Shown here piece by piece: positions 3,221 to 36,320 of a stretch of 64,000 nt of DNA (the first letter of the stretch is position 1; each line of letters begins with the position of its first letter). The translations under genes were made by a program, and so were the position numbers. Where the stretch lies: the NCBI GenBank assembly GCA_000146465.1, contig CP001944.1. One strand, written 5' to 3'. The notes under the pieces were generated by a model, which searched no databases, was not told where the DNA came from, and was given only the letters and a program-made list of their open reading frames with translations.

Positions 3221-3232
3221 GCCCTGGAAATG
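3221..3232 (+). promoter_or_regulatory. Start-proximal CCC motif 'gccctggaaATG' (FEN1)
   Basis: Exact 'CCCTGGAA' directly abutting the initiator ATG; one member of a recurring set (see findings). Confidence 0.55.
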
Positions 3233-4267
3233 GGGATCAAGCAGTTATCCAAGCTCCTGAAAGAGAATTGTGCGAAAGGAATTAAAGAAAGGCCTTTGGC
3301 ATACTACTCGTCGAAGAGAATAGCAATTGACGCTTCGATGTCGATGTACCAGTTTCTGATAGCTGTTAGATCTGATGGATCATCACTGGGAAACGAAGAC
3401 TCCCCAACATCGCATCTTGTAGGATTTTTCTACAGGACTATCCGGATGGTGGAGCTAGGAATAATACCTGTGTATGTATTTGATGGAGTACCTCCCGAGG
3501 TTAAGATGAAGGAGCTAGAGAAAAGAAGCGAAAGAAGAGCAGCAGCTGATAAAGAGTACAAAGAGGCGTCTGAAATGGGGGACAAGAAGCTTATGGAGAT
3601 GTACGACAAGAGAAAGACAAAGGTGACTGGGATGCATGTTGAGGAGTGCAAGAGACTTCTTGGGCTGATGGGGATACCGTTTGAAACAGCACCCAGCGAG
3701 GCAGAGGCATACTGTGCTTTCCTATGCAAGAAGAAGGCTGTGTACGGTGTTGCAACAGAGGACATGGATGCTCTGACATTTGGGTCACCTGTGGTGTTGA
3801 GAAACTTCAGTGGCTCCCAGAGCAGAAAGCTTCCTATTGTAGAATACAACCTCCCGGAGCTATTGGAAAGCCTTTCCTTGGAGCACGAAGAGTTTATTGA
3901 CTTGTGCATTCTCCTCGGATGTGATTACTGTGGCACATTGAAAGGAATAGGGCCTAAGAGAGCACTGGGGTTGATTAAAAAGCATGGGGGCATTGAGAAG
4001 ATTCTCCAGAGCGAGAATTTGGAGGTTCCCGACGGCTGGAGATATAGGGATGCCCAGAGGATATTTGGAAGTCTTCCGGAAATTGGAGATGCAAGAGAGT
4101 TTAATATTTCATGGGGGTCGATAGACAGAAATGGGATTGTGAGCTTCCTTGTTGAAGAGAAGGGATTTGACTTGGAAAGAGTCAACAGAGGGATTGAAAA
4201 GCTTGTGAACTCTCGAAAGAAAGGGGTCCAAGGGCGTCTAGATGGGTTCATAGCAAGGAGCAGGTGA
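3230..4267 (+). CDS. FEN1: Flap endonuclease 1
   Basis: 'MGIKQLSKLL...IAIDASMSMYQFLIAVR...TSHLVGFFYRTIRMVELGIIPVYVFDG' is near-canonical FEN1/Rad27. 'gccctggaaATG' start motif. Confidence 0.9.
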   Translation: MGIKQLSKLLKENCAKGIKERPLAYYSSKRIAIDASMSMYQFLIAVRSDGSSLGNEDSPTSHLVGFFYRTIRMVELGIIPVYVFDGVPPEVKMKELEKRSERRAAADKEYKEASEMGDKKLMEMYDKRKTKVTGMHVEECKRLLGLMGIPFETAPSEAEAYCAFLCKKKAVYGVATEDMDALTFGSPVVLRNFSGSQSRKLPIVEYNLPELLESLSLEHEEFIDLCILLGCDYCGTLKGIGPKRALGLIKKHGGIEKILQSENLEVPDGWRYRDAQRIFGSLPEIGDAREFNISWGSIDRNGIVSFLVEEKGFDLERVNRGIEKLVNSRKKGVQGRLDGFIARSR

Positions 4268-4281
4268 GTCTTCTATGGCAG

Positions 4282-5133
4282 TTACAGGTTTTTATACATC
4301 AAGTTCCTCAGATACAATGGCCTACAACCAGACACGTGCTTTTTGAAGCTGGACATATCCACAAGTAGAACACCCTCCCTGTCTATGAGACCGAAGTCAA
4401 GAATGTCAAGGAAGTAAAATAGGATTTCCATGTTAGTTACTCCCCTGAGCTCGTTGGCATCTGATGTAAAGGCCCGAAACTCTGGCACACAGCTGATATA
4501 CTTTATTCTTCTTTTGAATGCCATCATTGTAAGGGCCACATGGACAGGGTTCAGTAAGGAGTATAGAGTTTCTATGGAGTATTCTGGAATGGAGTACTTT
4601 TTCAAGACTATTTTCTTCAACAGAACTGAAATGCTTGGATCGATATTGTATTGTCTCTGGATTTCTTCTTCATTGTCTGTGGCGGCAAGTTGCATATGCA
4701 GAGTTCTGTATAGCTCAAAAGGAAGAAAACCTGTGAAAAATATCCGGTGATTGAATCTTGACTTGATACGCCTTTCCAGTCTGTCCAGAGAAGTGCACGA
4801 GTTCGATACAAGAAGCAGGCAGCAGGGATGGGTCCTGGTCTTTTCAAGATAATGGTATACGTGCAGCTGACGGGAAATGGGCATTTCTCCCTCTATATCA
4901 ATAAAAAAAACCTTTCCGTCGGGACTTTCGTCTTTTGGAGTGGTTGGGAGGACTTTAACCACTGTTCTGCTTATCTTTTCTGCATGGCTCTTCACCACCC
5001 CAACGATTGCTTGAAGTATTTCTTGGTCTGGCCCACACAGGAGAAGATGCTCCCCATTTTTGTCAATCAGACGTGTTATCTCGCAGATGGTTTCCTTGAA
5101 GCACTCTCCGACAATCTTTGCTGTGCCATACAT
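4282..5133 (-). CDS. Origin recognition complex subunit 4-like (degenerate Walker A)
   Basis: 'VFFIDIEGEM' and 'LLLVSNSCTSLDRLERRIKSRFNHRIFF' match the ORC4 sensor region ([30 protein letters not shown]). The expected GKT P-loop reads 'LLLCGPDQEIL'. Confidence 0.45.
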   Translation of the reverse strand: MYGTAKIVGECFKETICEITRLIDKNGEHLLLCGPDQEILQAIVGVVKSHAEKISRTVVKVLPTTPKDESPDGKVFFIDIEGEMPISRQLHVYHYLEKTRTHPCCLLLVSNSCTSLDRLERRIKSRFNHRIFFTGFLPFELYRTLHMQLAATDNEEEIQRQYNIDPSISVLLKKIVLKKYSIPEYSIETLYSLLNPVHVALTMMAFKRRIKYISCVPEFRAFTSDANELRGVTNMEILFYFLDILDFGLIDREGVLLVDMSSFKKHVSGCRPLYLRNLMYKNL

Positions 5134-5170
5134 CGGGGACGCAAAAAGAGTTGGTCTTGAACAGAAAAAA

Positions 5171-5242
5171 TGCTAGATCCCGGGTTCGAACCGGGGACAC
5201 CTAGATCTTCAGTCTAGTGCTCTTCCACTGAGCTAATCCAGC
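5171..5242 (-). tRNA. tRNA-Phe (GAA)
   Basis: The reverse complement folds as a cloverleaf: acceptor GCTGGAT/ATCTAGC, anticodon stem CTAGA/TCTAG with loop CTGAAGA (anticodon GAA), T-arm CCCGG-TTCGAAC-CCGGG. No intron. Confidence 0.9.
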
Positions 5243-5317
5243 TATAAAGTCCATCCCACCAATACTTCCAGACTCTGCCCCCACATAATCATCGTTCTGT
5301 TTACCTTGAGCCCAGGA

Positions 5318-7453
5318 ATGGATCACGATCCCAACAACGCCTCTTTAAGAGATCTCCTCTCTTCCCCACACACAGATCTTCTTCAGATAATGCAGTACAT
5401 GCATGAACATCCATCTGTAGGCGTCTGGCAATACATATGCAGTAGAATTAGACATTCCAGTCCCCAGATTCGATACCTTCCTCAGCTTGTCCATGTGTTT
5501 CTCTACAACAAAGATAGAATGTCTAGCAAGCCAATGCACGCTCTCCTTAGTCACTGGGCTGGAAAAGATAGGGAGTTTTGCTGTGCACTATACTTCCATC
5601 TGAGAAGCGCTCTTGAAAGCAACAGCGACATAAGATCTATATCTTGCTACTTTCTGATCTGCGACATATTCGAGACCGAAAGAAAGAGGATGTGCCGGAA
5701 CACAAGGATCCTGGAGCTGCAGTATAGATACAAGACAAAAACCGGTAGAACCCTTGGAACACTTGTTGCAAGAAAGGGATATCCTCCCCTTCGAGGAATC
5801 CTCCTGTTCTTTGTGAAAGCCGTGTCATGGATGGTTCATCCAAGACTCTTTAAGAGAATCCATGATTATGAAGAAATGTTCCTGGAAACAAGAGAGGTAT
5901 GTAACATCAATGTGAAAAGGGATTTAAGATTTGGGAATGCATTCGATGGCCCCGGAGTAAGCTCAAGCATCTCGTTTCTCGAGTCCCTAGTTGAGATCCC
6001 AAGTAGGTTGAAGAAGCTCCCTCGGCACTTAAGGCAAAGAGGACTAGACATGGAGATCAAGCTTCTAAACCATAACCTGCCTGCAAAGGTATCTCTTCCA
6101 TTCCATTCGGGAAGGTTTGTGCTGACTGCTAGAGTCGAGGAATCGTTTCTACTAGATTCGGCAGAAAACTCTCCTTTTCTCGTTGTATTTGAGACTGCAC
6201 TAGAAGTGCCAAGAAGAAGTTGTGCAAAAGAGGAGATCAAAGATGCATTGTTTTTGAAGCAACAGCTGGACGCAGTCAATGGGCTTTCCTCTCTAAGCGA
6301 GATAAATGTTGTTAAGGAGAATGTGATGACCTCTATAGAAAAGATTCTGATGACCGAAAGATACGAAAATACTTCTCTTGAGAACTCTCCAAACTTGGAG
6401 GCTTGGAGAAGTGATGAAGAAAAAATAGACAAACATCTAGATGACATTCATGTTCAGCAGAAGATTTCTAAGAATTCTGTTGATGCAGGAATGCTTTTTA
6501 TGAACCATAGATCGTACTCTGCAGGACAGTTAGCAGAAGGAAATAGCTCCTTTGGAAAGAGCGAGGAGGAAAAGAAGCTTGGAGGCTCGGCAAGCTATAG
6601 GCGCCATAGCGGATGGATACTTAAGAAAGCTGAACTTAGAAGAACCTCTTTGTTCAATGATGTTGCTGGATGGACGGCAGAGTCCGTGATTGTAAAGACA
6701 GGAAACTCTCTAAGACAGGAGCTAATGGCCCACCAGGTTCTTCAAGAAATGAAGAAAATCTGGAGAAAAGAGAATAGTCCTATTTGGGTCCAAGCTTATC
6801 AGATCTACCTTGTAAGTGACACTAGTGGAATAATAGAGACGGTGGTGGATGCTTTGTCAATACACAAGATCAAGAAAAAGATGATGTCGGAAAATAAGAA
6901 TTACTCTCTGAAGAACTACTTCACAGAGTCCTTCGAGCCAAACAGCGAAAAGTACAGGAGCTGCTTGCGAAACTTCCTCTACTCTCTTGTGGGATACTCC
7001 CTAGCCACATACATTCTACAGGTCAAGGACAGACATAACGGAAACATAATGATTGATGGGCAAGGGCATATCATCCATGTTGACTTTGGATTTATAATGG
7101 GAAATCATCCGGGTTTCTACTGTGTCGAAGCAGCGCCATTCAAATTCTCAAAAGAGTATCTTGAGCTCCTCGAGGGTCTGATGGATGAGTTCAAGGACCT
7201 GTTTCTTCAGGGGTACATGGCACTGAGAAAGCACAGCAGCAGTCTTTTCAGGATCATGGAGACGATGCCAGGAAGCTCTAGTGTAGAGTGCTTCAACAGG
7301 AGAGAGCTTCAAAACTTCAAGGATAGGTTTCGGATGGATCTCAACGAGGAGAGGGTTGAGGAACACGTGACATACTTGATAAATAAGAGCCTTAACAGTA
7401 TGGGAACGGGGCTGTACGATTCCTACCAATACTTTTCATATGGATATCTTTAG
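5318..7453 (+). CDS. Phosphatidylinositol 4-kinase (Pik1/PI4KB-like)
   Basis: C-terminal catalytic motifs 'ILQVKDRHNGNIMIDGQGHIIHVDFGFI' and 'APFKFSKEY' are present. The ORF-track start at 5306 is TTG; the ATG at 5318 is preceded by 'gcccagga'. Confidence 0.8.
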   Translation: MDHDPNNASLRDLLSSPHTDLLQIMQYMHEHPSVGVWQYICSRIRHSSPQIRYLPQLVHVFLYNKDRMSSKPMHALLSHWAGKDREFCCALYFHLRSALESNSDIRSISCYFLICDIFETERKRMCRNTRILELQYRYKTKTGRTLGTLVARKGYPPLRGILLFFVKAVSWMVHPRLFKRIHDYEEMFLETREVCNINVKRDLRFGNAFDGPGVSSSISFLESLVEIPSRLKKLPRHLRQRGLDMEIKLLNHNLPAKVSLPFHSGRFVLTARVEESFLLDSAENSPFLVVFETALEVPRRSCAKEEIKDALFLKQQLDAVNGLSSLSEINVVKENVMTSIEKILMTERYENTSLENSPNLEAWRSDEEKIDKHLDDIHVQQKISKNSVDAGMLFMNHRSYSAGQLAEGNSSFGKSEEEKKLGGSASYRRHSGWILKKAELRRTSLFNDVAGWTAESVIVKTGNSLRQELMAHQVLQEMKKIWRKENSPIWVQAYQIYLVSDTSGIIETVVDALSIHKIKKKMMSENKNYSLKNYFTESFEPNSEKYRSCLRNFLYSLVGYSLATYILQVKDRHNGNIMIDGQGHIIHVDFGFIMGNHPGFYCVEAAPFKFSKEYLELLEGLMDEFKDLFLQGYMALRKHSSSLFRIMETMPGSSSVECFNRRELQNFKDRFRMDLNEERVEEHVTYLINKSLNSMGTGLYDSYQYFSYGYL

Positions 7454-7494
7454 ACAAGGATTAAACAACTTTTTGGACGAAGGGGATCTTTATT

Positions 7495-8328
7495 ATGTTG
7501 CTTAGAAGAGTTCGGCTACCAAACAAGCCGCTGGTGATATTGTCTTGGAAGAACTCTGTATACATTGGAGATGCCCACGGAGTTGTGTATGAGATGAAGC
7601 ATCCGTATATTGCTCCAGTGGCCATATTCCAATCTCCAGGACCGGTATCTGCGTTGGATGGAGCAGAATGCCTGTACTATGGGAATTGGGATGGAGACAT
7701 AGGAATAGTTGGCGGAGGAAAGATTAATCTGGGAAACCATATGGTGAAGTGCATGGTTGTTCACGGAGACACAGTGTATGCCTCGGTGGGTTTGATGGTA
7801 TATGGTCTAAGTCTTGAATTGAAGATAAAGTGTTCTTACGAGGTTAAGCACAAGGTTTTGTGTATGACTTCCTTCCAAGGGTCGGTCTATTGTGGCATGG
7901 GAGTGTCATTTCTATCACGCATTCATAATGGGCTTGAGATTGTTGGAAGGAGTTTGCATGATACCTCGATCTTTTGCATTTCAGGAGAGTATACCGGATC
8001 TGCAGACGGAAAAGTCCTAAAGCAGGATTACGATGAATTAGAGAATGCTAAAGAGATCTACAGAGGGAAAAACTGGATCAGATCAATGTACAACCAGCAT
8101 TTATTTTCTGATGGAAGAGATGTAATGGGTGACATTGATGGTCTGAAGGGAAGCTTGGGGAGCGGAGTAAAGCTCATGTATTCTCATGAAGAAGATGTGG
8201 TGGGAGTGGTTAGAGTAGGAGGCATGATTATCTCGATTGGACTGGACTACTGCTGCACCATCCTTGAAGTGGAGCCAAGCCTCAGCATGGAGGAAGAAAA
8301 GGAACTAGCGGAGCTTATGAACGGATAG
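7495..8328 (+). CDS. Hypothetical protein, possibly beta-propeller-like
   Basis: Complete 277-aa ORF with a G/V-rich repetitive beta-strand character; no diagnostic motif recognised. Confidence 0.3.
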   Translation: MLLRRVRLPNKPLVILSWKNSVYIGDAHGVVYEMKHPYIAPVAIFQSPGPVSALDGAECLYYGNWDGDIGIVGGGKINLGNHMVKCMVVHGDTVYASVGLMVYGLSLELKIKCSYEVKHKVLCMTSFQGSVYCGMGVSFLSRIHNGLEIVGRSLHDTSIFCISGEYTGSADGKVLKQDYDELENAKEIYRGKNWIRSMYNQHLFSDGRDVMGDIDGLKGSLGSGVKLMYSHEEDVVGVVRVGGMIISIGLDYCCTILEVEPSLSMEEEKELAELMNG

Positions 8329-8407
8329 GGTGTTCTGTTTAACAGAATGTGGAAGCCTATTTGTTATGACAATGCTTAAGGCCTAGGAAGTCGTAAACAA
8401 AGCCAAA

Positions 8408-8662
8408 ATGTTTCTGCCTCCTGAAGCAAACACAAGGGAGAGAAGAAGATTTGATCTGGACGACCTCCGGGTTTACTATCTAATATGTGAGGAGCTTGGG
8501 ATAGCTGAGGAGGAGCACATCCAAAAATCTTTCTATTACCTTATGAAATGGGCAGGGCAAGATAAGTTTGATGGAGAGGTGGGGCTTCTTAGGAATTACA
8601 TAATGAAGATTAGAAAAGAAAAGCAAAATAAGCCTGGTGAGTGGAGCATGCTAAGGATGTAA
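8408..8662 (+). CDS. Hypothetical small protein (84 aa)
   Basis: ORF in an otherwise unexplained gap; no domain recognised. Confidence 0.25.
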   Translation: MFLPPEANTRERRRFDLDDLRVYYLICEELGIAEEEHIQKSFYYLMKWAGQDKFDGEVGLLRNYIMKIRKEKQNKPGEWSMLRM

Positions 8663-8755
8663 GAGAAGATGCTCCTTATACCCTAAATAAAAAAATCCAG
8701 ATGGCTTCAGTCCTCCTTTCGCCAATTTGATTCCCCAATACTATTTTATTTATCA

Positions 8756-9265: not shown

Positions 9266-9297
9266 TCACTTTGAAAACAAGATCCCCGACGCTTTCA

Positions 9298-9906: not shown

Positions 9907-9962
9907 GGCCTATCTCACTGTCTCTAGTAAATATTTTATGCTTCTTAAACCGTTTATATTCC

Positions 9963-10343: not shown

Positions 10344-10862
10344 TTAAAGATTGCTTGTCTTCAGGTCCTTTGAGACGTTGGAAACAATCTTGTTTTCAGG
10401 TTTTTCAAGTAGCTCCGGGTCCGAATACCCCATTTGGAGATGGACAGCATATTTGCTCCTGTCAAGAACCTCTTTACTGAATTCAATCTTGGATTTGGTG
10501 GCAAGAGCAGGCCCAATAAATGGCCCTTTAAATATCTTTTCCTTTTGCAACTGCCTGCTTAGTGCATAAAGACATATGACAACCTGTTTCAGATCCTTTG
10601 CTTCAAATAGGTCGTTGGTCTGAAATAGCTCGTATTCATTCATCTTGAGTTTTTTAAGTCCGTTAATAAACGAGCATATGTTTTCCCTTTGCACAAATAT
10701 TTGCTTGGACTCCTTATACTTGACATCGAGTTTTGAAACCTTATTAAGGAATCTGCAGAGCCTTACTCCATCCTTGAATAGGTCATGGAATGTCCCAGCT
10801 TCAAACTTCTCTCCAAGGACAGTCTGGATCCATAGTGTCACTTCCTCTTGTTGCTTATCCAT
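10344..10862 (-). CDS. Calponin-homology (CH) domain protein, transgelin/Scp1-like
   Basis: 'LWIQTVLGEKFEAGTFHDLFKDGVRLCRFLNKV...RENICSFINGLKKL...DLFEAKDLKQVVICLYALSRQ' is a canonical CH domain. 'gccctggaATG' start motif. Confidence 0.7.
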   Translation of the reverse strand: MDKQQEEVTLWIQTVLGEKFEAGTFHDLFKDGVRLCRFLNKVSKLDVKYKESKQIFVQRENICSFINGLKKLKMNEYELFQTNDLFEAKDLKQVVICLYALSRQLQKEKIFKGPFIGPALATKSKIEFSKEVLDRSKYAVHLQMGYSDPELLEKPENKIVSNVSKDLKTSNL

Positions 10863-10870
10863 TCCAGGGC
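10860..10870 (-). promoter_or_regulatory. Start-proximal CCC motif 'gccctggaATG' (CH-domain gene, minus strand)
   Basis: Reverse complement reads gccctggaATG. Confidence 0.5.
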
Positions 10871-10966: not shown

Positions 10967-12520
10967 TTATTGGGTTGCTCCCTTGGGCTTCTGGATAAGG
11001 AAGTCTAAGAATACAATCATGGTTACCACTGTTACAATGGAGGTGACCAATGTACTAAAGAGAAGCGACAGAACAAAAATCCCTGTCACTGCCCATGAGG
11101 CTGTGCAAGTGGTTAGAAGGAGGAATAAGAAGATTGTCTTAATGGCTCCCATTCGGTCTCTATGGAGATTGACTTTCTTTCCTTCAAGATCTGTGGTAAG
11201 GATTTCATATGTAACTTGTAAGCTCCCATGGCAAAGTCTGTTTATGAAGTATCTCTGTAAACCTATTGCTGAATCTCTTAATGTGTCAATGGGCCTTTGC
11301 TTTCTTCTGGAAAGGAAATGGCTCTTCAGGGCAAACGATCCTGAGTATTGCATCGAGAGAGAGTTCCCATTTTTGTACCACAGGTACTTCATCTGGTCGT
11401 AGATATTCTCCTTATTTCCAATGTCGAAGTGGGAAAGTTGTTTGGAAAGAACATGCTCTCCAATGATGAACTGAGATATGTTTGTTCTGTCCAAGCAATC
11501 AATACAATTTGTACGAATAACACCATTTTGAGAACTTTCTGGCCCTTTGTATCCAAATAGGGAAAGAGTTTCGTCTACTAGACCCAGAAATCTCTCCTGA
11601 GTATCACCTTCGAAAATCCCTCCTTCCTCAAAGAAATTGAAGTGTACTCCCTTCTTGTTGTTTCCAAGCAATTCACTTTCATATGCATCGTGTAATTCTC
11701 CTTCGTATCCAGAGCTTCTTATGAGGTTCAGATATAAAACATCGCCATACTTGCTCCTCATTATGTCGTCGGCTAGGTGAAGTATTTTCCTATTGCTGAT
11801 AACTATCTTTGGATTGTATTCTCTCCCAAGAACATGCTTCCACATCAAAGGAATCGACCCTCGAACCTGTAGGTGCGATGTGGTCTTCTCCCCCTCATAA
11901 ACAATCTGCTCCGTCTCAACATAGTTCGAGACATATCCCGATGAATCCGATCCTCTGGAAAAGTATCTTGCTCCTGCTCTTCTCCAAGACCTTCTTGAAA
12001 TCAGTCTCAAACATACTGCTCCAACATCTATGGACCCAAAAAACCCCTGTATGCAGCTCAGAGAAAACAGAGATCCTTGATCTCCAACATGTTTTAGGAA
12101 CCTCTCAAGTGGCAGGGAGTTGAAGAGGAAATCCAAGTCGTCGTCCTTCTTTATACTTATCGACTTGTGAAGGGGATATGTGCTGAAATAAATCCCTGTA
12201 TTTCGGAGAAACTTTCTTACCTCTTTCATCTCACTTGAGAAGTTCTCTGTCTTCGACCTCTTTAGCCGAATGATTTCTACATCTTGGATCTCGTAGACAG
12301 CATGTTCATACATCATTCCTCTTAAAACAGCATCTACAACCAGAATGAGATAAGAGGACTTGGAAATCGTAACTATTCCATAAACTCCGTATGAGTGATA
12401 AACAGACTTTCCCGAGTCCATCTTTTGTCTCTTCAAGATCAGAGTTGTGTTCTTATCGATATTCTCGAGCATGATTTCCTCTGGAGAGGTAGAGACTTTC
12501 AAACTTGTTCCCATATTCAT
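10967..12520 (-). CDS. SAC1: Phosphoinositide phosphatase SAC1, with C-terminal transmembrane anchor
   Basis: Catalytic CX5R(T/S) motif 'RTNCIDCLDRTNISQ' and hydrophobic C-terminal helices. 'cccctggaATG' start motif. Confidence 0.85.
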   Translation of the reverse strand: MNMGTSLKVSTSPEEIMLENIDKNTTLILKRQKMDSGKSVYHSYGVYGIVTISKSSYLILVVDAVLRGMMYEHAVYEIQDVEIIRLKRSKTENFSSEMKEVRKFLRNTGIYFSTYPLHKSISIKKDDDLDFLFNSLPLERFLKHVGDQGSLFSLSCIQGFFGSIDVGAVCLRLISRRSWRRAGARYFSRGSDSSGYVSNYVETEQIVYEGEKTTSHLQVRGSIPLMWKHVLGREYNPKIVISNRKILHLADDIMRSKYGDVLYLNLIRSSGYEGELHDAYESELLGNNKKGVHFNFFEEGGIFEGDTQERFLGLVDETLSLFGYKGPESSQNGVIRTNCIDCLDRTNISQFIIGEHVLSKQLSHFDIGNKENIYDQMKYLWYKNGNSLSMQYSGSFALKSHFLSRRKQRPIDTLRDSAIGLQRYFINRLCHGSLQVTYEILTTDLEGKKVNLHRDRMGAIKTIFLFLLLTTCTASWAVTGIFVLSLLFSTLVTSIVTVVTMIVFLDFLIQKPKGATQ

Positions 12521-12529
12521 TCCAGGGGT
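12518..12529 (-). promoter_or_regulatory. Start-proximal CCC motif 'cccctggaATG' (SAC1, minus strand)
   Basis: Reverse complement reads gacccctggaATG. Confidence 0.5.
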
Positions 12530-12831
12530 CTTCAGGGTTGGGAAAATATTGATTATATGAAATAATGATTTATCTCATCATAGACCAAGAATTTTGAAAG
12601 TAGAGGAGATATGAAGCGAAAGGGTAGTATAAAGAACAAGAAAAAAAGAAAGGCGAAAATTATATCTTCTACAAGCAATGGCATGCAGTGTCCATTGGTC
12701 GATCCCATTATACAAGAGAGATAAGTAAGTCTCCTTGCAGCAGACCTAGCAGTTTCCTCTCCCTAATTAACTTGTTAAAGAAATATAATTTATCTTTCGG
12801 TCTCTTAAATAATTCGAAAATTGTTGGGGGT

Positions 12832-13515
12832 ATGGACAACTTTGGAGGCAACTTCTTTAATTCTTATAACAATAACTCTACCAGAGAGACAGAAGGAAGC
12901 CAATACTTTGATCCTTACTTTGTCAAGCATCGAAAAAGAACAACGAAAGCACAGCTCAAGGTTCTGGAGGAAACCTTCGAGACCAACATCCGGCCGGATG
13001 CAAACATGAGGAAGAAGCTTGGGGAAGAGCTAGGAATGACGCCTAGAAGTGTCCAAGTATGGTTCCAGAACAGAAGGGCAAAAATCAAAAAGCTCACACA
13101 GAAGAAGATGATGCAGCAAGAAAACACAGACAACACCAAGGGCCAGGAGACAGCCCATACACCAAGCCCATCAAAAGAAAGCAAATACAACGGCTATCAC
13201 CCATACATGCCCATCCAGGGACCTTTAGAAGAGTTCAATGTATATCCAAGAGATAACAGCATCTATAAACATGCAATACCGCAAGGAATGGGATCTCCGG
13301 TGATGTATGAGGGCTTTGGATACAGAGGGCATGAAGAATACGGATATCCCTATGTACAGAGATATGGAAACGGAGAGTACTATCAAATGCAATATCCGTA
13401 TGGGATGATGCAGGCTCAATGGCACCAACCTCCAGGATTCCGTGACGAAGATTACTATCGCTCTACTAGAAAACAGCAATATAGAGGAGGCGCACCCAAT
13501 CCTGAAAAGATGTAG
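12832..13515 (+). CDS. Homeobox protein (typical 60-aa homeodomain) with Y/Q/G-rich C-terminus
   Basis: 'KRTTKAQLKVLEETFETNIRPDANMRKKLGEELGMTPRSVQVWFQNRRAKIKK'. The ORF-track start at 12688 is GTG; the ATG at 12832 is preceded by 'ttgggggt'. Confidence 0.8.
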   Translation: MDNFGGNFFNSYNNNSTRETEGSQYFDPYFVKHRKRTTKAQLKVLEETFETNIRPDANMRKKLGEELGMTPRSVQVWFQNRRAKIKKLTQKKMMQQENTDNTKGQETAHTPSPSKESKYNGYHPYMPIQGPLEEFNVYPRDNSIYKHAIPQGMGSPVMYEGFGYRGHEEYGYPYVQRYGNGEYYQMQYPYGMMQAQWHQPPGFRDEDYYRSTRKQQYRGGAPNPEKM

Positions 13516-19241: not shown

Positions 19242-19253
19242 TCCCTGGAAATG
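19242..19253 (+). promoter_or_regulatory. Start-proximal CCC motif 'tccctggaaATG' (NCS6/CTU1)
   Basis: Same 8-mer directly 5' of the ATG. Confidence 0.55.
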
Positions 19254-25674: not shown

Positions 25675-25747
25675 GCCCCTGTAGTGTAGTGGTTATCACG
25701 CATCCTTTACACGGATGAGGTCCTTGGTTCGATCCCGAGCGGGGGCA
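25675..25747 (+). tRNA. tRNA-Val (UAC)
   Basis: Acceptor GCCCCTG/CGGGGGC, 'GTAGTGTAGTGGTTATCACG' D-arm, anticodon stem CATCC/GGATG with loop TTTACAC (anticodon TAC), T-arm CTTGG-TTCGATC-CCGAG. No intron. Confidence 0.85.
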
Positions 25748-25797: not shown

Positions 25798-26733
25798 TCA
25801 GAAAATGATATAATTTCTCTTTTTTCCTTCTAGCATATTTATCACCACAGATAGTTCATAATATGCATACCAAATAAACAATATTATTAGCACAACAGAT
25901 ATGGCTATGTTGCACGAACTAGCAAACTCGTCGGAGATCTCCAGTTCCCTTCGAAAAAAGGGATAAATCCTTTTGGTAAGTTCTAAAAGGTAGAACATGA
26001 TCATGATATAAAAAAAAGGAGTAAGGACTAATGCTATAGCAAAATTAACGGGCTTTGGGAAGTTTAGAAGATTTTCTACAATGTCCTGATTTTCGTGGGA
26101 GACAACTACGTTAACCACCCAGCATCCCATAACCTCTGCAAGTATCTCAATAAATGTAATACTTTCTATATTCTCCAGAAGACTCCAAGCCGAAGAAAAG
26201 AAATATTGTGCTTTTACAAAACGAATAACATGCTCTGGCCCCAGATTATCTTTCATCTTTTTTTCGTTTTTACCTTTCAAGAGAATCACTAGAATAGAGA
26301 CCCGAACAATAAGCATCAAAACTTTCCGGAGGTCAATGGTCTTCATCTTAAACACACTAATAACACTTTTGAAGAAGAATCCAAGAGTGATGTTTGCGAA
26401 TATAAGAAGTGTATAAATAATACAGAAAGCCTTTCTAATCTCTAGTACCATTTTGACTTCTTCTATTTTTTTGGCCTGCTTCTCTATGTTACTCCAAACT
26501 AACCCGAACTCTAGAAACCTCTTGAAAGGCCATAGAATATATCGGCTTGGAGGAAAAATCCTATAGATTGCATTAAAGATAAAGTCCCACCGAATTAATC
26601 CTAATATAACGATCACTATGCAAGTCCACGTAAGCCAGAAAAAAGTCCAGAATACTCCCCTTTCTCTTTTTTTTGAATATCTGTCTTTCCTTTTAGTACC
26701 ATCTACATCCTGAGACTTTTTTAAAGTGTCCAT
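25798..26733 (-). CDS. Hypothetical multi-pass membrane protein
   Basis: The ORF-track start at 26745 is TTG and the ATG is at 26733. K/F/I-rich with 7 or more hydrophobic segments and a charged N-terminus. Confidence 0.35.
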   Translation of the reverse strand: MDTLKKSQDVDGTKRKDRYSKKRERGVFWTFFWLTWTCIVIVILGLIRWDFIFNAIYRIFPPSRYILWPFKRFLEFGLVWSNIEKQAKKIEEVKMVLEIRKAFCIIYTLLIFANITLGFFFKSVISVFKMKTIDLRKVLMLIVRVSILVILLKGKNEKKMKDNLGPEHVIRFVKAQYFFSSAWSLLENIESITFIEILAEVMGCWVVNVVVSHENQDIVENLLNFPKPVNFAIALVLTPFFYIMIMFYLLELTKRIYPFFRRELEISDEFASSCNIAISVVLIILFIWYAYYELSVVINMLEGKKRNYIIF

Positions 26734-26916
26734 TACAAATATCAAGGCACTGTCTTTTTTTGAGTATTTGCATCTGGCTCCCTGGAAAGTAATTGCATAA
26801 AACTGATGAATATTGAAACAAAACCGATTAGTTAATTACAGATTTAAAGGAGAAATAGAAAATGACATCCAAAGAGGAATACATTTACTAAGATGTTATC
26901 TATCTTATAATCTTCC

Positions 26917-29211: not shown

Positions 29212-31800
29212 ATGGATAGTAGTTTTGGATTTGGAAGCCCTGGAATGGATGGAAATGTTTTGGGGGTTCTAGGAATACCATTAGAGCTTGTTTTTGAGGA
29301 AGGGTTAGATGCTGAGAAGCAAGCAAGTGTGATTCGTAGAGTAGAAGAAAAGACATGCTTCCGCCTCAAAAGGGAAATGGACATAGACATCTTGATATCT
29401 GAAGTGGCAAATGACGAGACTTCAACCATGGAGACCTTAAAGAGTTATCTAGGAAAGGGTCTTTTTGGAGGGAAGTTTGGTTTTCTGGATGCAGTTAGTG
29501 TGATTGTATGCTCTGAAAAGATTAGTGTTGACGAGATGTCCAAGCATTATGTGCCAATTGATGAGATCATGGGGGAAGAGGTTGAGGAGGTGTTTAGAAG
29601 AATTGCAGACCTTGAGGGAAGGAAACGGATCGAAAGACAGGCCAACCGATGGAGCTTGAAGTCTTTGAAGGACATTTTCAAGAGCAATCCCGACGAAGAC
29701 AAAAGGTTTGCTGATGGGCTCTTTGTTTTGGAAAGATACAAGGAGGCCTATAGAATATACTCAAGATACAATGGAGTTGACGAATTTTCATGTTATTGTA
29801 TCGAAATGTCTATCTACTGCCTGATTTTGTCAAAGAAATCGGTTCCATCAAGTATAGTAAATAGCCTTGGGATGTTCGGGAGTGAGAAGGTATGTCTAGT
29901 TAGGATAACGAGTATAGCCATAGGCTTTTCGGACATTCTTGCCTTAGAGATGTTGGCTCTACTTCAGGAAAAATCGCTTTTTAAGGCTCTTGCCCAGGAA
30001 AGCTTGGCTCAGGTCTTAGATGGGAAGAAGTACCATAGAAAGAAGATAGAAATGTGGTTTAACTCGAGTTTAGAATTCCGAGAGATGAAATATATCGGCC
30101 GATCGATAAGATGCTGCGAATGTTATCTTGACCTTAGCAACTTCAACTTTATTAATGGAATCTTACCTGAACTTGAGAGAAATATATTGCTCTCTCCCAA
30201 TAGATATATTAAGGAAACTCTTGAGTTAATGAAGGGAAACTGCAGTCCTGGCTTGGAGGATGGAGTAATAGAGAAAAGTAAGGAAGAAATAGTCATATGG
30301 AGAGAATATCAAGGATCGATGTGCAATTTTCAAGGAGTTGCGAATGTTGTGGAATCGATTTTTGTGCAATTCAAGGGAAGAGGCCTTGTAAGTATCTTGC
30401 AGAAGGGAGAAGAGACTCCAAAAACCTACTGGACAAATCAAAAGGTTACCTTTGATGGGCCAGGAGAGTTTATTATCGAGGATATTACTTTTAATGCCTG
30501 GGAAGTTGAGTACAAAGTGAAGCTTGGAATTCCAATTGATATTAGAGAGGATACACCCTTTATGCATGTGGAAATGAAAGACGTCCATGAAGTTCTGTGC
30601 GGGGAATTATACTTTCTTTCTTGCAAGATAGTTAGAAACCATAATTCAAGAGTCAAGATTCTCTTTGATAACAGAGAGTTCACAACTAGTAGCAATATGT
30701 TTGGCTTTGAGATGGTATTTCAGGCCGTAGGCGTCTATAGTTGTAGAATAATCTTGGAAGCTGAAGGAGTCATTACATACAAAGATGTAATGTTTACAGT
30801 TATTCCGTCTTTTTCGATAGATACTTTTAACTACAAGTATTGTCTTCCTCTGGTATTTCTGAAGATCGAGAGCCATATTGAAGAGAATTCAAGAGTAAGA
30901 TCCTGTTTGGCACTTAGCAAGGATCTTGAGGTTTCTGGTCTGGACACTACTACTGGGTCATTTTATTCCTACAAGGAATATGCCATTGAGTATTTCAGAA
31001 AAAACATTGTTGGTGTAGGAAGTGGAGATCTTGGACAGACTCTTGGAGTTGAGAAGGAGAAGCCGATACTACCAGAAAATCTCCAGAAGCTGCTACATGG
31101 TATGGACAAATCTCCACCAGTGACATCTGATCTACTTTTCAGCGACCTGATTCCTGTAATGGAAAAGAAGATGATTATACCAGGAGAAGGAACCTACTCC
31201 TTTTGCACCTTCCTCCAGGGGAAAAAACCTCTAAGAGAACTCCTGAGCCCAAGGGCTAAAGAACCTGACAAAGTATCAAAGAGAGAAACCAACGAAGTAA
31301 TCCTATACAGTTTGAAGAATGAAAGCTTAGGGACGATTTTTGATGGATCCTTAGAAGAACAACCAGGAAAAATATCTATGAGAATAGAGATTGAAATACC
31401 ACCTAAAAGAGTGTGTGTGTTTGTGGTTAAAGGGATATTCGAGGCCCTGTTCTCTCCAGAGGGTTTATCTGATGAGGGAATAATCAAACCTATCTGTCCA
31501 TTTGTCTACATAACACATTTCTCACCAGCACGGTTGAAGGAACCTACAATAATATACTTATGTGTCAGCAATTACTATGAGCAACATGTTCTGGATGTGG
31601 AGATTTCGTCTCCTACCATAGCCATATGTAGCTCAGATTCCAAATTCAGAGTTGAAAAACTTTCGTTCTCCCTTTTCGAGGTCCGATCTGCATTCAAAAA
31701 GAGAAAGAAATATGAAGAAAGCGACATCAAAATTAGTATAAAGGTTGAAAACGAGGAGATTGATCATGAATGTTTGGTAGAGCTTCCACTTGTTTCATGA
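29212..31800 (+). CDS. Large hypothetical protein (862 aa), weakly TRAPPC8/Trs85-like at the N-terminus
   Basis: Long uninterrupted ORF. 'RFADGLFVLERYKEAYRIYS' loosely resembles the Trs85 'LADL.F..RDYELAL..Y' block; otherwise there are no recognised domains. Confidence 0.4.
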   Translation: MDSSFGFGSPGMDGNVLGVLGIPLELVFEEGLDAEKQASVIRRVEEKTCFRLKREMDIDILISEVANDETSTMETLKSYLGKGLFGGKFGFLDAVSVIVCSEKISVDEMSKHYVPIDEIMGEEVEEVFRRIADLEGRKRIERQANRWSLKSLKDIFKSNPDEDKRFADGLFVLERYKEAYRIYSRYNGVDEFSCYCIEMSIYCLILSKKSVPSSIVNSLGMFGSEKVCLVRITSIAIGFSDILALEMLALLQEKSLFKALAQESLAQVLDGKKYHRKKIEMWFNSSLEFREMKYIGRSIRCCECYLDLSNFNFINGILPELERNILLSPNRYIKETLELMKGNCSPGLEDGVIEKSKEEIVIWREYQGSMCNFQGVANVVESIFVQFKGRGLVSILQKGEETPKTYWTNQKVTFDGPGEFIIEDITFNAWEVEYKVKLGIPIDIREDTPFMHVEMKDVHEVLCGELYFLSCKIVRNHNSRVKILFDNREFTTSSNMFGFEMVFQAVGVYSCRIILEAEGVITYKDVMFTVIPSFSIDTFNYKYCLPLVFLKIESHIEENSRVRSCLALSKDLEVSGLDTTTGSFYSYKEYAIEYFRKNIVGVGSGDLGQTLGVEKEKPILPENLQKLLHGMDKSPPVTSDLLFSDLIPVMEKKMIIPGEGTYSFCTFLQGKKPLRELLSPRAKEPDKVSKRETNEVILYSLKNESLGTIFDGSLEEQPGKISMRIEIEIPPKRVCVFVVKGIFEALFSPEGLSDEGIIKPICPFVYITHFSPARLKEPTIIYLCVSNYYEQHVLDVEISSPTIAICSSDSKFRVEKLSFSLFEVRSAFKKRKKYEESDIKISIKVENEEIDHECLVELPLVS

Positions 31801-31836
31801 TATTTAGGAATAGCTTCTTAATAAAAACAGAAGAGA

Positions 31837-31848
31837 ACCCTGGAAATG
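31837..31848 (+). promoter_or_regulatory. Start-proximal CCC motif 'accctggaaATG' (NMT)
   Basis: Same 8-mer directly 5' of the ATG. Confidence 0.55.
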
Positions 31849-32913
31849 GAGGAGAAACATAAATTCTGGAATACACAGCCCGTTGGCAAAAATGGATTGG
31901 GAATTATATCTAACGAAAGATCTGTATCTCTGGAGAAGCCAAAGCTTCCTGGGGGATTTCGGCTTGAAGAACTAGAAAGTATTGAGGAATTAGCCAGGTT
32001 TCTTGAGGAAAATTATGTAGAAGATGTCCATTCAGGACATATGCTTAAATACTCTAAAGATTTCTTGGAATGGGTAATTGGGAGTGATGAGGCAAGAAAG
32101 AAATATTCTGTTGTACTCCGATTGTGCGGACGGATGGTAGGATTTATATTTGCTCAGGAACATTGGATAGTTATCCGGGAACAGAAGAACCGTGTGGTTG
32201 GAGTGAACTTTTTATGTGTTTCGCAGGAAATGCGCGGGAGGGGATTAGCACCCATACTTATAAAGGAAGTTACAAGACAAGCAAATGTGGATGGGATCTT
32301 CCAAGGAGTGTTTACAAACGGAATAGAACTATTTTTCAATATTTCTCACGGGAGATATTACCACCGGCCTCTGAATGGAGAGAATCTGTTCATGAGTGGG
32401 TTTAGCGACCGGATTATAAAGTCCCGAAAGACTCATGTGAGAGAAGGAACAAGGGTAGCAGAGGAAAAAGACATGGTGGACATAGAAAAGCTGTATCTGC
32501 AAGAGAGTGAAAAACACATGTTCTATGAAGAAATAAGATCTTCGAATATATCATCTACATTTAAAACTGTGAAGAATGTGATACATACATATGTCCATGA
32601 AAGCGGTGGAAAGATTGACGGGTTTGGATCGTTCTTTATAATTGACACTATTGAAAAAAAGTCCAAAAGAAAAGTCCAAGGAGGATATCTGTACTACAGA
32701 GGAGGAAGGGATATCAAAGAAATGGTTGAGGATCTTATATATTTCGCAGAAAAAGAGGGATGCGATGTATTCACTTGCCTCGATACAATGGGAAACTCCT
32801 CATTCCTGGCAGACCTAGGGTTTTTTCCTGGAAGTGGAGAAATCCGATATTATCTGTACAATTGGAGCACTCGGGAAGTACCGAAAGATAAGGTCTTCTT
32901 TATTCTTCCATGA
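31846..32913 (+). CDS. NMT1: Glycylpeptide N-tetradecanoyltransferase (N-myristoyltransferase)
   Basis: 'HKFWNTQPV' N-terminal signature and a GNAT-fold duplication. 'accctggaaATG' start motif. Confidence 0.85.
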   Translation: MEEKHKFWNTQPVGKNGLGIISNERSVSLEKPKLPGGFRLEELESIEELARFLEENYVEDVHSGHMLKYSKDFLEWVIGSDEARKKYSVVLRLCGRMVGFIFAQEHWIVIREQKNRVVGVNFLCVSQEMRGRGLAPILIKEVTRQANVDGIFQGVFTNGIELFFNISHGRYYHRPLNGENLFMSGFSDRIIKSRKTHVREGTRVAEEKDMVDIEKLYLQESEKHMFYEEIRSSNISSTFKTVKNVIHTYVHESGGKIDGFGSFFIIDTIEKKSKRKVQGGYLYYRGGRDIKEMVEDLIYFAEKEGCDVFTCLDTMGNSSFLADLGFFPGSGEIRYYLYNWSTREVPKDKVFFILP

Positions 32914-33001
32914 GTACTGTGAAAGAGATAAGTAAAGAAAATGACTTCATAAAATCTTTTAAGATGGTTTAGAAATATTTGGCGTGTTTTCTTGAGGCCC
33001 A

Positions 33002-33919
33002 ATGAAGCTAGTGACTCACAATGAGAGGTTTCACTACGATGAAATTCTCGCATCCTGTGTGCTTCTTCGTATATATCCGGATGCTGAAGTGATAAGAACA
33101 AGAGATGACTCGATCATTTCTCAGGGAGACATCGTTTACGATGTCGGAAGGGTGTTTGATCCTCAGTCAGGAAGATTTGACCATCACCAAAGAACATTTT
33201 CCGAAACATTTTCCCCAAAATACAGGACTAAGCTTAGCAGTAGTGGACTCATATTCAAATATTTCCATAAGAAGCTCTTGGCCTTGTACGGAGTGGAGGA
33301 GTCGTGCAGAATATACGAGCTTGTGGTAGACAAAATATATTCGGAATTCTTTCTTTACGCCGATGCCATAGACAACGGGATTGATATATACGGGGAAATA
33401 AGGCCTCGAAGTATTGCCGACTTGGTAAGTCTGTTTAATTCTGACGAGCCAAACGAGGACTTGGAAAATCAGAGGTTCCTTGAGGCGCTAAAGATTGTAG
33501 ATAAAGATCTAGACAATTACTTAAAGAGAATCAGAACATGGATTGACAGCTATGAATACGTGGAAAGTAAAATAAAAGAAACCAACGGCCCAATTCTTGT
33601 ACTTGACAAGCACTATAGCACTGACCTGGTTTTGGAAATTGAAGGTAGCCATCAAAAAGATTTCAAGTTCATGGTATTTCCTTTGAGAAATGCTTACAGA
33701 GTAATGGCAATACCTAAATGCAAAGGGTCATTCGAGACAAAAAACCCTCTGAAGAAGGAATGGCGCGGGCTAGTAAACGAGGACTTAGTGCGGGTATCTG
33801 GAATTGAAGGTTGCACTTTTGTCCATTCTTCAGGGTTTATGGGGATTAACAGTTCTCTTGAAAATGCCTTGAAAATGTGTTCGGAGTCTCTTCCAAACAA
33901 CAGAAATCTAAATCAATAA
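33002..33919 (+). CDS. MYG1/UPF0160 family metal-dependent hydrolase
   Basis: 'LVTHNERFHYDEILASCVLLRIYPDAEVIRTRD...GDIVYDVGRVFDPQSGRFDHHQR' matches the MYG1 'THSGSFHADEALA...IRTRD...YDHHQR' pattern. Confidence 0.8.
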   Translation: MKLVTHNERFHYDEILASCVLLRIYPDAEVIRTRDDSIISQGDIVYDVGRVFDPQSGRFDHHQRTFSETFSPKYRTKLSSSGLIFKYFHKKLLALYGVEESCRIYELVVDKIYSEFFLYADAIDNGIDIYGEIRPRSIADLVSLFNSDEPNEDLENQRFLEALKIVDKDLDNYLKRIRTWIDSYEYVESKIKETNGPILVLDKHYSTDLVLEIEGSHQKDFKFMVFPLRNAYRVMAIPKCKGSFETKNPLKKEWRGLVNEDLVRVSGIEGCTFVHSSGFMGINSSLENALKMCSESLPNNRNLNQ

Positions 33920-33943
33920 AACAACAATTTATTCAATACGAAC

Positions 33944-35188
33944 TCATGGATCTTCCTTTGAATCGAACGTTTCGTAGTCGTCGGAGTCTTCTCCTTCTTT
34001 TTTCTTGGACAGCTCTTCGTCGTCGCTCTCATCACTTATAAAAGATGGCGGAATGTCGATCATTTGTACCGACGGCGCATGAGATATTCCTCGAAGATTC
34101 TCATACACCGATGCTATAATGCTATCCAGACTTTCTCTGGTGTTCTGATTAGCTATATTTGATGTAGGGACATCTATCTTATATGTTGGAGCATAATAGT
34201 CAAAGTACTCATTGTAGGGTATCTCTTTTGGAATATCCACATCCAGAACAACACTTGTCCCATAAGCCCATGCTTTTGAGACATTCCCGATAGTGTATCC
34301 TCCACCGCCGAGGAGAATAAGAGGGATATTAAAGCTCTGCACAAACTTGATACATCTAGAATGTCCCAGGTGCGAAAGATTGAAGCATCCTAATTTATCT
34401 CCAGAAAGTGAGTCTGCTCCCGACTGGAGTACAATTGCATTCGGCCTATAAACTTCTATAACCTTACTAACAACCGGCTTGAAAATGCTAAAGTAACTTT
34501 CGTCGTCAATTCCATCTTTTAGAGGAACATTGACAGAATAACCTCTTCCCTTTGCTAACCCAATGTCCGAGACCATTCCGGTTCCTGGGAAGTAGTCTCC
34601 ATACTTGTGAAAGGAAACAGTCATCACTCTGTCTGTGGTATAGAATGCCTCCTCAACCCCGTCTCCATGATGCACGTCTATATCTATGTATAGAACCCTC
34701 TTGTTATACTTCAGAAGCTCAAGAATTCCTAGAACTATGTCATTTACATAACAAAACCCCGAAGCTTCGCTTCTCTTGGCATGGTGCAATCCCCCAGCCC
34801 AGTTGATTGCAACGTCGTATTTCCCAGAGCTAATCTTCTGAGCCGCATAAATGCTTCCTCCTGCAGTAAGTTTGCAGTAATCATAAAGCCCTGGAAACAC
34901 AGGGCAGTCATCTCTAATGTTGAACTTGTGAAGGTCTTTAATCATTTCCTCCATGTTTTCACTGGAAACACTTGAAAGGAAGTTTATATAATCCACTGAA
35001 TGGAAGTTTGTTAGGTTTTCATATGATGCCTGAAATGGCCTGAGGATATCCATGTACTTGTAAAGTTCATATCCAACAAGAAGAGTATGTGTCATCTTTA
35101 CTCTCAGAGGTTTCATAGGATGTCCCATTGCATAGCTGAAGTTCCCTATTTCGGGATCGTAAAAGTATACCACTCTCTTACTACTCAT
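33944..35188 (-). CDS. RPD3: Class I histone deacetylase (Rpd3/HDAC1-like)
   Basis: '[33 protein letters not shown]...', '[14 protein letters not shown]' and an acidic C-terminal tail. 'aaccccggATG' start motif. Confidence 0.95.
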
Positions 35189-35267
35189 CCGGGGTTAAAA
35201 ATTTCGGTATCAAATATCATAGGTGTACTTTCAGGCCTTCGGATCTTATAGGATATGGTTTCCTCCA

Positions 35268-36311
35268 TTATCTATAGCTAAACTTCAGGAGCCCACAAAT
35301 TCCTCCCATCTCCTTCAGCTTCTCCCCAGAGAAATGTGCAACAGGGACAATAGATATCTTGCAGTTCATCCCTTGGATCTCTCGGCAGAACAATTCCATC
35401 TCTCTTCTTTTCTCAACATCATTAGGCCTCATTTTTTCATCGGTGATCATGAGCCGGTCTAGGGCTCCGTAGTCCATTGCTTCCCTAATACTTTCCATTC
35501 CGATGCAGACCAGGTCAGACCCTTTTGCGAACTTGACAAAAAAGTTGTCCACCTCCCTTAGATCGTCAATATACTGAACTCCCTGAAAAGTCTTGGAGAG
35601 ATCTTTGTCTGTGAGTATTGTATTGATGACCTTTGAATTAGAGCATCCTCTGCATTCAGGAGGGACCTTAACCACACAGAAGCTGCTCTGTATCTTCTTT
35701 AACTCCTTCGAGTTCACCACAGCCTTGTAAAACTCGTTTCTTATCTCGAATGCACTTGCAACCACAAATAGACTTATCTTATCAGCATACTTCTCCAATG
35801 TCTTAATGACATTGGTAAATTTCTTGTTTTTCATCTCCTGCTTTAATACTATACTAATTTTACTACGGGTTACTATAGACACAACACATTCTTTTTCGTA
35901 AAACACTACAAAAGCTGTTTCAAGCTGGGGCTTTGCAGCCTCTTTGAGTAATCTTATAGACATCTCCTGCCATTCGTCTTTTTCCAATGAAAAAGGCTGC
36001 CCAAGAGTTATATCTATCGTATGGTACGACCCAAGCTTGACATATTCATTAATTAGAACGGTCTTTCCCTTAAGATATATGGTAGAGCTTTCCAAGTCCA
36101 CATTTATGGCTTCCACTTTTATTTTTAGTGTGAGTGTTACTCTATGCTGCGTCTTTCCATCAATTTGGATTTTACGTGTTGTCACCGACGTCACCATATC
36201 ACCCACTTCTATGACAGAACTTAGAGTGTATATGTCTTCTTGATGCTCTGGAGTCATTTTTATGCTTCCTGATCTGCATTTTTGGTCTATTTTATTCTTC
36301 TCGAGCTTCAT
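35268..36311 (-). CDS. DOM34: Pelota/Dom34 (no-go decay ribosome rescue factor)
   Basis: 'MKLEKNKIDQKCRSGSIKMTPEHQEDIYTLSSVIEVGDMV' matches the Pelota N-domain and has an eRF1-like central and C-terminal region. 'gccctggaaATG' start motif. Confidence 0.8.
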   Translation of the reverse strand: MKLEKNKIDQKCRSGSIKMTPEHQEDIYTLSSVIEVGDMVTSVTTRKIQIDGKTQHRVTLTLKIKVEAINVDLESSTIYLKGKTVLINEYVKLGSYHTIDITLGQPFSLEKDEWQEMSIRLLKEAAKPQLETAFVVFYEKECVVSIVTRSKISIVLKQEMKNKKFTNVIKTLEKYADKISLFVVASAFEIRNEFYKAVVNSKELKKIQSSFCVVKVPPECRGCSNSKVINTILTDKDLSKTFQGVQYIDDLREVDNFFVKFAKGSDLVCIGMESIREAMDYGALDRLMITDEKMRPNDVEKRREMELFCREIQGMNCKISIVPVAHFSGEKLKEMGGICGLLKFSYR

Positions 36312-36320
36312 TTCCAGGGC
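36309..36320 (-). promoter_or_regulatory. Start-proximal CCC motif 'gccctggaaATG' (Pelota, minus strand)
   Basis: Reverse complement of 36309-36320 reads gccctggaaATG. Confidence 0.55.

Follow-up and report, generated by a model that had tools for sequence, protein, structure and literature searches.

Several unrelated genes on a stretch of Encephalitozoon intestinalis chromosome III carry nearly the same short word, CCCTGGA(A), joined directly to the initiator ATG. The stretch analysed here (the window) comprises 64,000 nucleotides (nt) from a eukaryote with one of the smallest known genomes and is typical compact microsporidian DNA, with about one gene per kilobase and an intergenic share of 12.5%. 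Its PI4-kinase is 100% identical to the protein of E. intestinalis ATCC 50506, its FEN1 protein is present on assembly GCA_051312795.1, a gene close to its right end maps to chromosome CP075160.1 of GCA_024399295.1, and locus tags such as Eint_031240 point to chromosome III. The question raised by this arrangement is whether CCCTGGA(A)-ATG is an element in its own right or a form of a signal that is already known. Our analysis indicates, with a probability of roughly 0.78, that at these sites E. intestinalis carries its own version of the start-proximal CCC-like core-promoter signal of microsporidia (sense-strand RCCCY, 3–10 nt before the ATG), and that CCCTGGA(A)-ATG is the full-consensus version of this one signal rather than a separate element, and thus largely ordinary. 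The observation itself is statistically solid; the CCC-like signal and its use for correcting start codons are already known.

Motif sites and their enrichment at start codons

Eight sites had been cited in the original prediction, and inspection of the sequence finds every one of them in its place. A ninth, which had been overlooked, precedes ATG 29245, the annotated start of Eint_031240. The sites are the following.

TFIIA large-subunit gene (TFIIA-L), 2677–2688, plus strand: CCTCTGGAA-ATG, a one-mismatch copy
FEN1, 3222–3232, plus strand: (G)CCCTGGAA-ATG; protein encoded at 3230–4267
PI4-kinase (PI4K), 5311–5320, plus strand: (G)CCCAGGA-ATG; gene at 5318–7453
CH-domain gene, 10860–10869, minus strand: (G)CCCTGGA-ATG
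SAC1, proximal copy at 12518–12528, with the distal box 12518–12537, minus strand: distal CCCTGAAGA, then proximal CCCCTGGA-ATG
CTU1/NCS6-type PP-loop gene, 19243–19253, plus strand: (T)CCCTGGAA-ATG
Eint_031240 (851 amino acids, no Pfam match), 29238–29247, plus strand: (G)CCCTGGA-ATG, GCCCTGGA-ATG
N-myristoyltransferase (NMT), 31838–31848, plus strand: (A)CCCTGGAA-ATG
Pelota, 36309–36319, minus strand: (G)CCCTGGAA-ATG

The base before the CCC is G or A in six of the eight fused copies, with T in CTU1 and C in SAC1. ATG 29245 sits 11 codons inside an 862-codon longest open reading frame (ORF) whose first in-frame ATG is at 29212, and the Eint_031240 orthologs all start at the equivalent of the motif-bearing ATG 29245, not at that of 29212. 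The 184-nt gap directly upstream of the PI4-kinase motif also contains a tRNA-Phe(GAA) gene (5171–5242, minus strand).

For statistical comparison, 63 starts in the window were curated by means of external gene calls and ortholog lengths and were set against 2451 other ATGs. CCCTGGA(A)ATG is present at 7 of the 63 starts and at none of the other ATGs (Fisher p = 4e-12), and the relaxed form CC[CT][TA]GGA(A)ATG, whose eighth member is the PI4-kinase site CCCAGGAATG, gives 8/63 versus 0/2451 (p = 1e-13). Under a mechanical and non-circular rule, in which the first ATG of each of the longest non-overlapping ORFs is taken as the start, the relaxed form is found at 7 of 65 starts and at 1 of 2449 other ATGs (p = 4e-11); this sole “other” ATG is 29245, the Eint_031240 start. 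Dinucleotide-preserving shuffles (n = 100) yielded 1.7 ± 1.35 sites for CCCTGGAAATG with at most one mismatch, as compared with nine in the window, a count that none of the 100 shuffles reached. The shorter word CCCTGGA is found at 20 sites versus 8.9 ± 3.2 in shuffles, and 10 of these 20 fall within the intergenic 12.5% of the window. At the scale of the window, the check that had been proposed for the motif, against internal ATGs and against shuffled sequence, thus returns enrichment at starts in both comparisons.

The same word emerges from an unbiased k-mer scan, in which the top word at each length is CCC (corrected p = 1e-18), CCCT, GCCCT, CCCTGG, and CCCTGGA, the last of these remaining significant after correction over all 7-mers (2e-4). 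The CCC triplet is far more widespread than the full word: as had been claimed for most of the other genes, a CCC run lies near the ATG, being present between -15 and -1 at 35/63 starts (56%) versus 8.7% of the 2451 other ATGs (p = 3e-20), and RCCCY is present between -16 and -1 at 18/63 starts (29%) versus 1.8% (p = 9e-16). The frequency of C at starts is highest at -7 to -5, and the spacers between CCC and ATG are mostly 1–5 nt. Downstream of the ATG, position +4 is A or G in 80% of starts and +5 is A in 57%, in agreement with published E. cuniculi values. GGG had been put forward as a companion signal, and as a class it is not enriched (6/63 starts versus 10% elsewhere); orthologs do retain the individual GGG boxes found at 14-3-3, GPI2, and the homeobox gene.

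The motif is strictly confined to the sense strand, with CCCTGG at 7/63 starts and the reverse words CCAGGG and TCCAGG at 0/63, so that the “palindrome-like” appearance ascribed to its core has no relevance. Two palindromic readings were rejected: a STAT-like TTCCWGGAA site, which occurs four times versus 1.55 expected, not a significant excess, and always in coding sequence, and a CCWGG-type recognition site acting on both strands, for which the reverse-orientation words are absent at the 63 starts.

Relation to the published CCC-like signal

A start-proximal CCC-like (RCCCY) signal has been described in microsporidia (Cornman et al. 2009, PMC2685015; Peyretaillade et al. 2009, PMC2803860). 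In E. cuniculi, CCC-like and rarely GGG-like signals follow A/T-rich stretches at nearly all genes, the 5′ untranslated regions of six genes are shorter than 7 nt by rapid amplification of cDNA ends (RACE), and 18% of start codons were corrected by means of the CCC/GGG signals (PMC2803860). The signal has been incorporated in the MicroAnnot annotation workflow (PMC10815200). It has been noted too for Trachipleistophora and Nematocida.

The sites in the window match these properties. Like the published signal, they consist of a purine/pyrimidine-flanked C triplet on the sense strand, about 3–10 nt from the ATG, which is found at most genes, is preceded by an A/T-rich stretch, is conserved across species, and is of value for choosing the ATG; the original prediction was right to place them with the transcription-associated CCC-like signals of microsporidia. 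They are unlike it in that the published descriptions consulted cover the triplet and its immediate flanks, without singling out CCCTGGA(A)-ATG, and a literature search for the word CCCTGGAA returned unrelated papers only.

The A/T-rich stretch takes the form of a positioned box. AT content across the 63 starts rises to 0.73–0.89 at -29 to -24 from the ATG, versus a background of 0.6, and TAAA is present between -38 and -16 at 26/63 starts versus 9.8% (p = 1.5e-10). The AT peak is sharper when sequences are anchored on the ATG than when they are anchored on the CCC. NMT provides an example.

AT-rich TATA-like box of NMT, 31814–31825, plus strand: CTTCTTAATAAA at -32 to -21

An AT-rich box placed 24–29 nt ahead of the ATG is in keeping with the short leaders (less than 7 nt) measured in E. 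cuniculi. The proposed architecture is a TATA-like box at this distance and a CCC box directly before the ATG, in which the spacing of the TATA-like box would make RNA polymerase II initiate at one of the few bases that directly precede the ATG and the resulting mRNAs would be almost leaderless. The CCC box would then lie just upstream of, or across, the start point in the manner of an initiator, the pyrimidine-purine step after the CCC (T-G, or C-A in PI4-kinase) would probably provide the first transcribed base, and GGA(A) would form all or part of the leader. A role of the element in transcription initiation, and with it the position of the transcript start, is suggested by the E. cuniculi RACE data together with the spacing of the AT box.

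This arrangement resembles RNA polymerase II promoters built from a TATA box and an initiator, in that an AT box keeps a fixed distance of 24–29 nt to the presumed start point, which is itself occupied by a second short element, and the T-G or C-A step is the usual pyrimidine-purine dinucleotide. It is unlike the metazoan (YYANWYY) or yeast initiators in sequence, and it abuts the start codon, with leaders nearly absent; for the purpose of this comparison, we infer from spacing that the element overlaps the transcription start site.

Comparison with related microsporidia

Syntenic regions were compared for window positions ~1–41,700 only. The loci were from E. cuniculi (L003, L008), E. hellem (L004, L010), E. 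romaleae (L005, L009), an Encephalitozoon-like microsporidian present in the Logan assembly of SRR21633403 (L006, L011), and Ordospora colligata (L007). The SRR21633403 organism has a PI4-kinase 70% identical to that of E. intestinalis and the same gene order over both regions compared, and in apparent distance it falls between the four named Encephalitozoon species and Ordospora.

Where orthologous genes are compared, E. cuniculi, E. hellem, E. romaleae, and the SRR21633403 organism all keep the CCC box at an unchanged offset, and it is the TGGA(A) tail that varies, as the individual genes illustrate.

FEN1: CCCTGGAA in E. intestinalis, E. hellem, and the SRR21633403 organism; CCCTCGAA in E. 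cuniculi; CCCTTCTA in E. romaleae
NMT: CCCTGGAA in E. intestinalis; CCCTAGAA, CCCTACAA, CCCTACAA, and CCCTAAGA in orthologs
Pelota: CCCTGGAA in E. intestinalis; CCCCAGGCAA, CCCCAGGCA, CCCCAAGCA, and CCCCGCCA in orthologs
CH-domain gene: CCCTGGA in E. intestinalis; CCCCGGG, CCCTGAG, CCCTGAG, and CCCCGAG in orthologs, with CCCTGTG also listed
PI4-kinase: CCCAGGA in E. intestinalis; CCCAGGGA, CCCAAGGA, and CCCAAAGA in orthologs
SAC1 (12518–12537, minus strand): distal CCC box common to orthologs; proximal ATG-fused copy only in E. intestinalis
TFIIA-L (2654–2688, plus strand): distal CCC box, GCCCTT at about -19, common to the other species; ATG-adjacent (C)CTGGA(A) only in E. intestinalis

Over the same set of orthologs, fused copies number 8/39 in E. 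intestinalis, 0/40 in E. cuniculi, 1/42 in E. hellem, 0/41 in E. romaleae, 2/34 in the SRR21633403 organism, and 0/20 in Ordospora. Since the tail varies at orthologs and each sister species has only zero to two fused copies, TGGA(A) is not a conserved gene-specific element. The core CCCTGGAA had been described as unusually well conserved; it does recur within the window, yet orthologs keep the CCC box alone.

A conservation profile from 26 ortholog sets is bimodal, with 0.79 at -26 to -24 and 0.83 at -7/-6, separated by a trough of 0.62 at -19; the site of GGA(A), -4 to -1, reaches 0.73–0.77. The AT box region is thus kept in orthologs and forms, together with the CCC box, the two modes of the profile.

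Origin of the TGGA(A) tail and its excess in the window

At the four positions that follow the last CCC, the sister species most often have T (0.48), G (0.40), G (0.28), and A (0.27), so that TGGA is the consensus of the genus when it is read position by position. GGA(A)-ATG occurs at 5–9% of starts in the four Encephalitozoon sister species, at 0/20 in Ordospora, and at 14% in E. intestinalis; before other ATGs in the window its frequency is 3%. Word counts for E. cuniculi were taken from a supplementary table of upstream signals that covers all genes. They fall from 785 for CCCT through 242 for CCCTG, 75 for CCCTGG, and 38 for CCCTGGA to 11 for CCCTGGAA, and CCCTGGA is the commonest 7-mer among those tested, the alternatives being CCCTTGA (31), CCCTGAA (29), CCCAGGA (13), CCCTCGA (10), and CCCCGAA (9).

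Directly fused to the ATG, CCCTGGA occurs 11 times and CCCTGGAA four times in the E. cuniculi table (~1,600 entries without a corrected start), which corresponds to ~1% of genes. The rate in the window, 7/63 (11%), is about tenfold higher (binomial 2e-6; Fisher 9e-6). Outside the window, the comparison took in 31 further E. intestinalis genes, located in the flanks on the left (L001) and on the right (L012) and on two other chromosomes (L013 and L014, reached through a subtelomeric DUF3654 paralog), which brings the E. intestinalis genes covered to 94 in total. One of these 31 (3%) carries the exact GCCCTGGAAATGG, at L013 4832–4842 before a 266-amino-acid ORF (L013 4840–5640); from this small and partly subtelomeric sample, the rate is compatible both with that of the window (p = 0.26) and with that of E. 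cuniculi (p = 0.25). From about position 4250 on, L013 and L014 are near-identical over a duplicated block that includes L29, an LSM protein, and Maf1, and the L013 fused motif recurs on L014 as part of this block.

Four points weigh against reading the word as nothing more than the full consensus of a promoter signal. First, TGGA follows the CCC at 7 of 36 CCC-bearing starts versus 0.5 expected from independent positions, so that a plain consensus of independent positions under-predicts it. Second, the fused copies are confined to the first 36 kb of the window (8/38 versus 0/25; p = 0.018). Third, (C)CTGGA(A) adjoins the ATG in SAC1 and TFIIA-L, with the ortholog-conserved CCC box lying 10–20 nt further upstream, an arrangement that may point to an independent function of the tail, such as one in translation. 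Finally, the proposed connection to the transcription start draws on AT-box spacing and on transcripts of another species, those of six E. cuniculi genes.

The sister species differ from the motif at five to six of the nine genes (CH, NMT, Pelota, SAC1, TFIIA-L, and in part PI4K), which suggests parallel gains in one lineage. A lineage-specific rise of the full word is plausible and, with 94 genes, not established. We consider it possible, at somewhat less than even odds, that E. intestinalis has shifted its core-promoter or start context towards a discrete 7–8-mer, CCCTGGA(A), fused to the ATG. Such a shift, if true, would suggest that the basal initiation machinery, or the translation of leaderless mRNAs, has come to favour different sequences. 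Should the tenfold excess hold genome-wide, it would represent drift of a core-promoter consensus between very close and extremely reduced genomes.

Alternative explanations

An explanation at the level of the mRNA, which we regard as unlikely, is that the GGA(A) tail or the whole 8-mer provides a start-codon context for leaders of a few nt, similar to the Kozak sequence or to the translation initiator of short 5′ untranslated regions (TISU), and that the CCC is a separate part belonging to the promoter. The word does resemble these contexts in that it lies directly before the ATG, has a purine at -3 (G in 9/9 copies) and, in most copies, G at +4 (6/9), and would be associated with leaders of a few nt. 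The arrangement of SAC1 and TFIIA-L, in which (C)CTGGA(A) stands at the ATG though the conserved CCC box is more distal, fits this idea, as do the enrichment of GGA(A)-ATG in four sister species even where no CCC is adjacent (5–9% versus 3%) and the presence of A at -1 in 51% of starts versus 28% of other ATGs. TISU, however, has another sequence (SAASATGGCGGC) and acts on leaders of ~12 nt, and the tail is poorly conserved between species; with leaders of 1–6 nt, TGGAA may be partly or wholly untranscribed. Moreover, -4 to -1 is the least conserved part of the proximal block, the purine content there is only 0.50–0.64, and no Kozak-type upstream context has been published for microsporidia, only the +4/+5 bias (PMC10815200).

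It is less probable still, and in our estimation very improbable, that a specific transcription factor binds CCCTGGAA and that the genes carrying this word form a co-regulated set. The recurrence of the 7-mer as a unit, in excess of the 0.5 copies expected from independent positions, would be accounted for by such a factor, and SAC1 and PI4-kinase both act on phosphatidylinositol 4-phosphate. The carriers as a whole are nevertheless unrelated (FEN1, CTU1, NMT, Pelota, the CH-domain protein, SAC1, PI4K, TFIIA-L, and two proteins of unknown function), the tail is not kept at orthologs, with zero to two fused copies in ~40 genes per sister species, and in every case the word sits precisely where the general CCC box belongs, joined to the ATG on the sense strand alone. 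The unrelated functions and the absence of ortholog conservation in the tail led us to reject the regulon idea.

Chance or base composition, by which a short word happens to stand before several ATGs of a compact genome, has a negligible probability and is refuted for the window, for although the extended word was selected post hoc, its copies are confined to one half of the window, and the out-of-sample rate is only 1/31, no dinucleotide-preserving shuffle reaches the observed count, no non-start ATG is preceded by the motif, the k-mer scan withstands correction over all 7-mers, and the identical ATG-fused string is found on another chromosome (L013 4832–4842) and at 15 E. cuniculi genes.

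Use in start-codon calling

Taken as a form of the CCC-like core-promoter signal, the motif is of practical use, since this signal is the main handle for calling starts in microsporidia, in which leaders are near-absent and ORF-based starts are often wrong. The original prediction held that the motif marks true starts, and in four genes the ortholog-supported start is indeed a downstream ATG with a CCC box.

ATP-synthase-C-like gene: ATG 9226
Prx: ATG 16306
Cmk: ATG 22570
hyp851 (Eint_031240): ATG 29245

The same note had pointed to ORFs that begin with TTG or GTG and whose first downstream ATG was said to carry the motif. This remark stems from the application of bacterial start codons to a eukaryote; a plain CCC is present at the first ATG in 11/18 of these ORFs, and the extended motif at only 1/18 (PI4K). 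Start prediction in E. intestinalis could be sharpened by a species-specific position matrix that includes both CCCTGGA(A)-ATG in its complete form and the AT box (-29 to -24).

Looser relatives, orphan copies, and other loci

Two genes in the right-hand part of the window carry relatives of the motif.

Mot1-like SNF2 ATPase, 55883–55896, minus strand: CCCCAGGAAGT-ATG, a looser variant whose spacer is longer
EF-hand gene, 59242–59267, plus strand: CCCTGGAATTAG CCCTTTCAGGG-ATG, with CCCTGGAA from -23 and a second CCC box from -11

The region 59192–59744 contains two overlapping ORFs on opposite strands. Gene calling selects the plus-strand EF-hand gene (59265–59744, 159 amino acids), which is also the one with the CCC boxes; the antisense ORF, though longer (180 amino acids), is probably spurious.

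Several copies of the word away from start codons were treated as chance occurrences. CCCTGGA at 13220 (minus strand), 47418 (minus), and 49326 (plus) is antisense within coding sequence. An orphan CCCTGGAA at 26780 (plus strand) is intergenic, with no ORF behind it. The orphan CCCTGGA at 37475 (minus strand) lies in a strongly conserved non-coding block in which the word itself is not conserved, and neither an ORF nor an Rfam family fits it.

Two of these positions adjoin other features. On the strand opposite to the orphan at 26780 is an ORF of unknown function at 25798–26733 (minus strand), which encodes 311 amino acids from its first ATG; its orthologs have 370–396 amino acids, or 557 in the SRR21633403 organism, and their N-termini and upstream regions cannot be aligned. 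The conserved block at 37290–37608 (plus strand) has about 170 nt of non-coding sequence that is almost invariant in five Encephalitozoon-type species, beyond the level of the neighbouring coding sequence, and lies between a carbohydrate-kinase gene (36420–37220) and a small homeobox gene (37609–37893) that is without a CCC box. No Rfam match, supporting covariation, or convincing ORF was found in the block. The block, upstream of the homeobox gene, contains several TAAT cores. It could be a genuine cis-regulatory region, perhaps for autoregulation by the homeodomain protein.

The gene names used in the original prediction are backed by Pfam, other than “ORC4” for 4282–5133 (minus strand), which has no Pfam match. 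The ORC/Cdc6-like AAA gene is instead the one that the left end of the window truncates, with its C-terminal part at 137–499 (plus strand). A tRNA-Val(TAC) gene is located at 25675–25747 (plus strand). From 63472 onward, and likewise at L012 13478–21353, the right end of the window and its flank enter subtelomeric DUF2463, DUF3654, and DUF1609 gene families.

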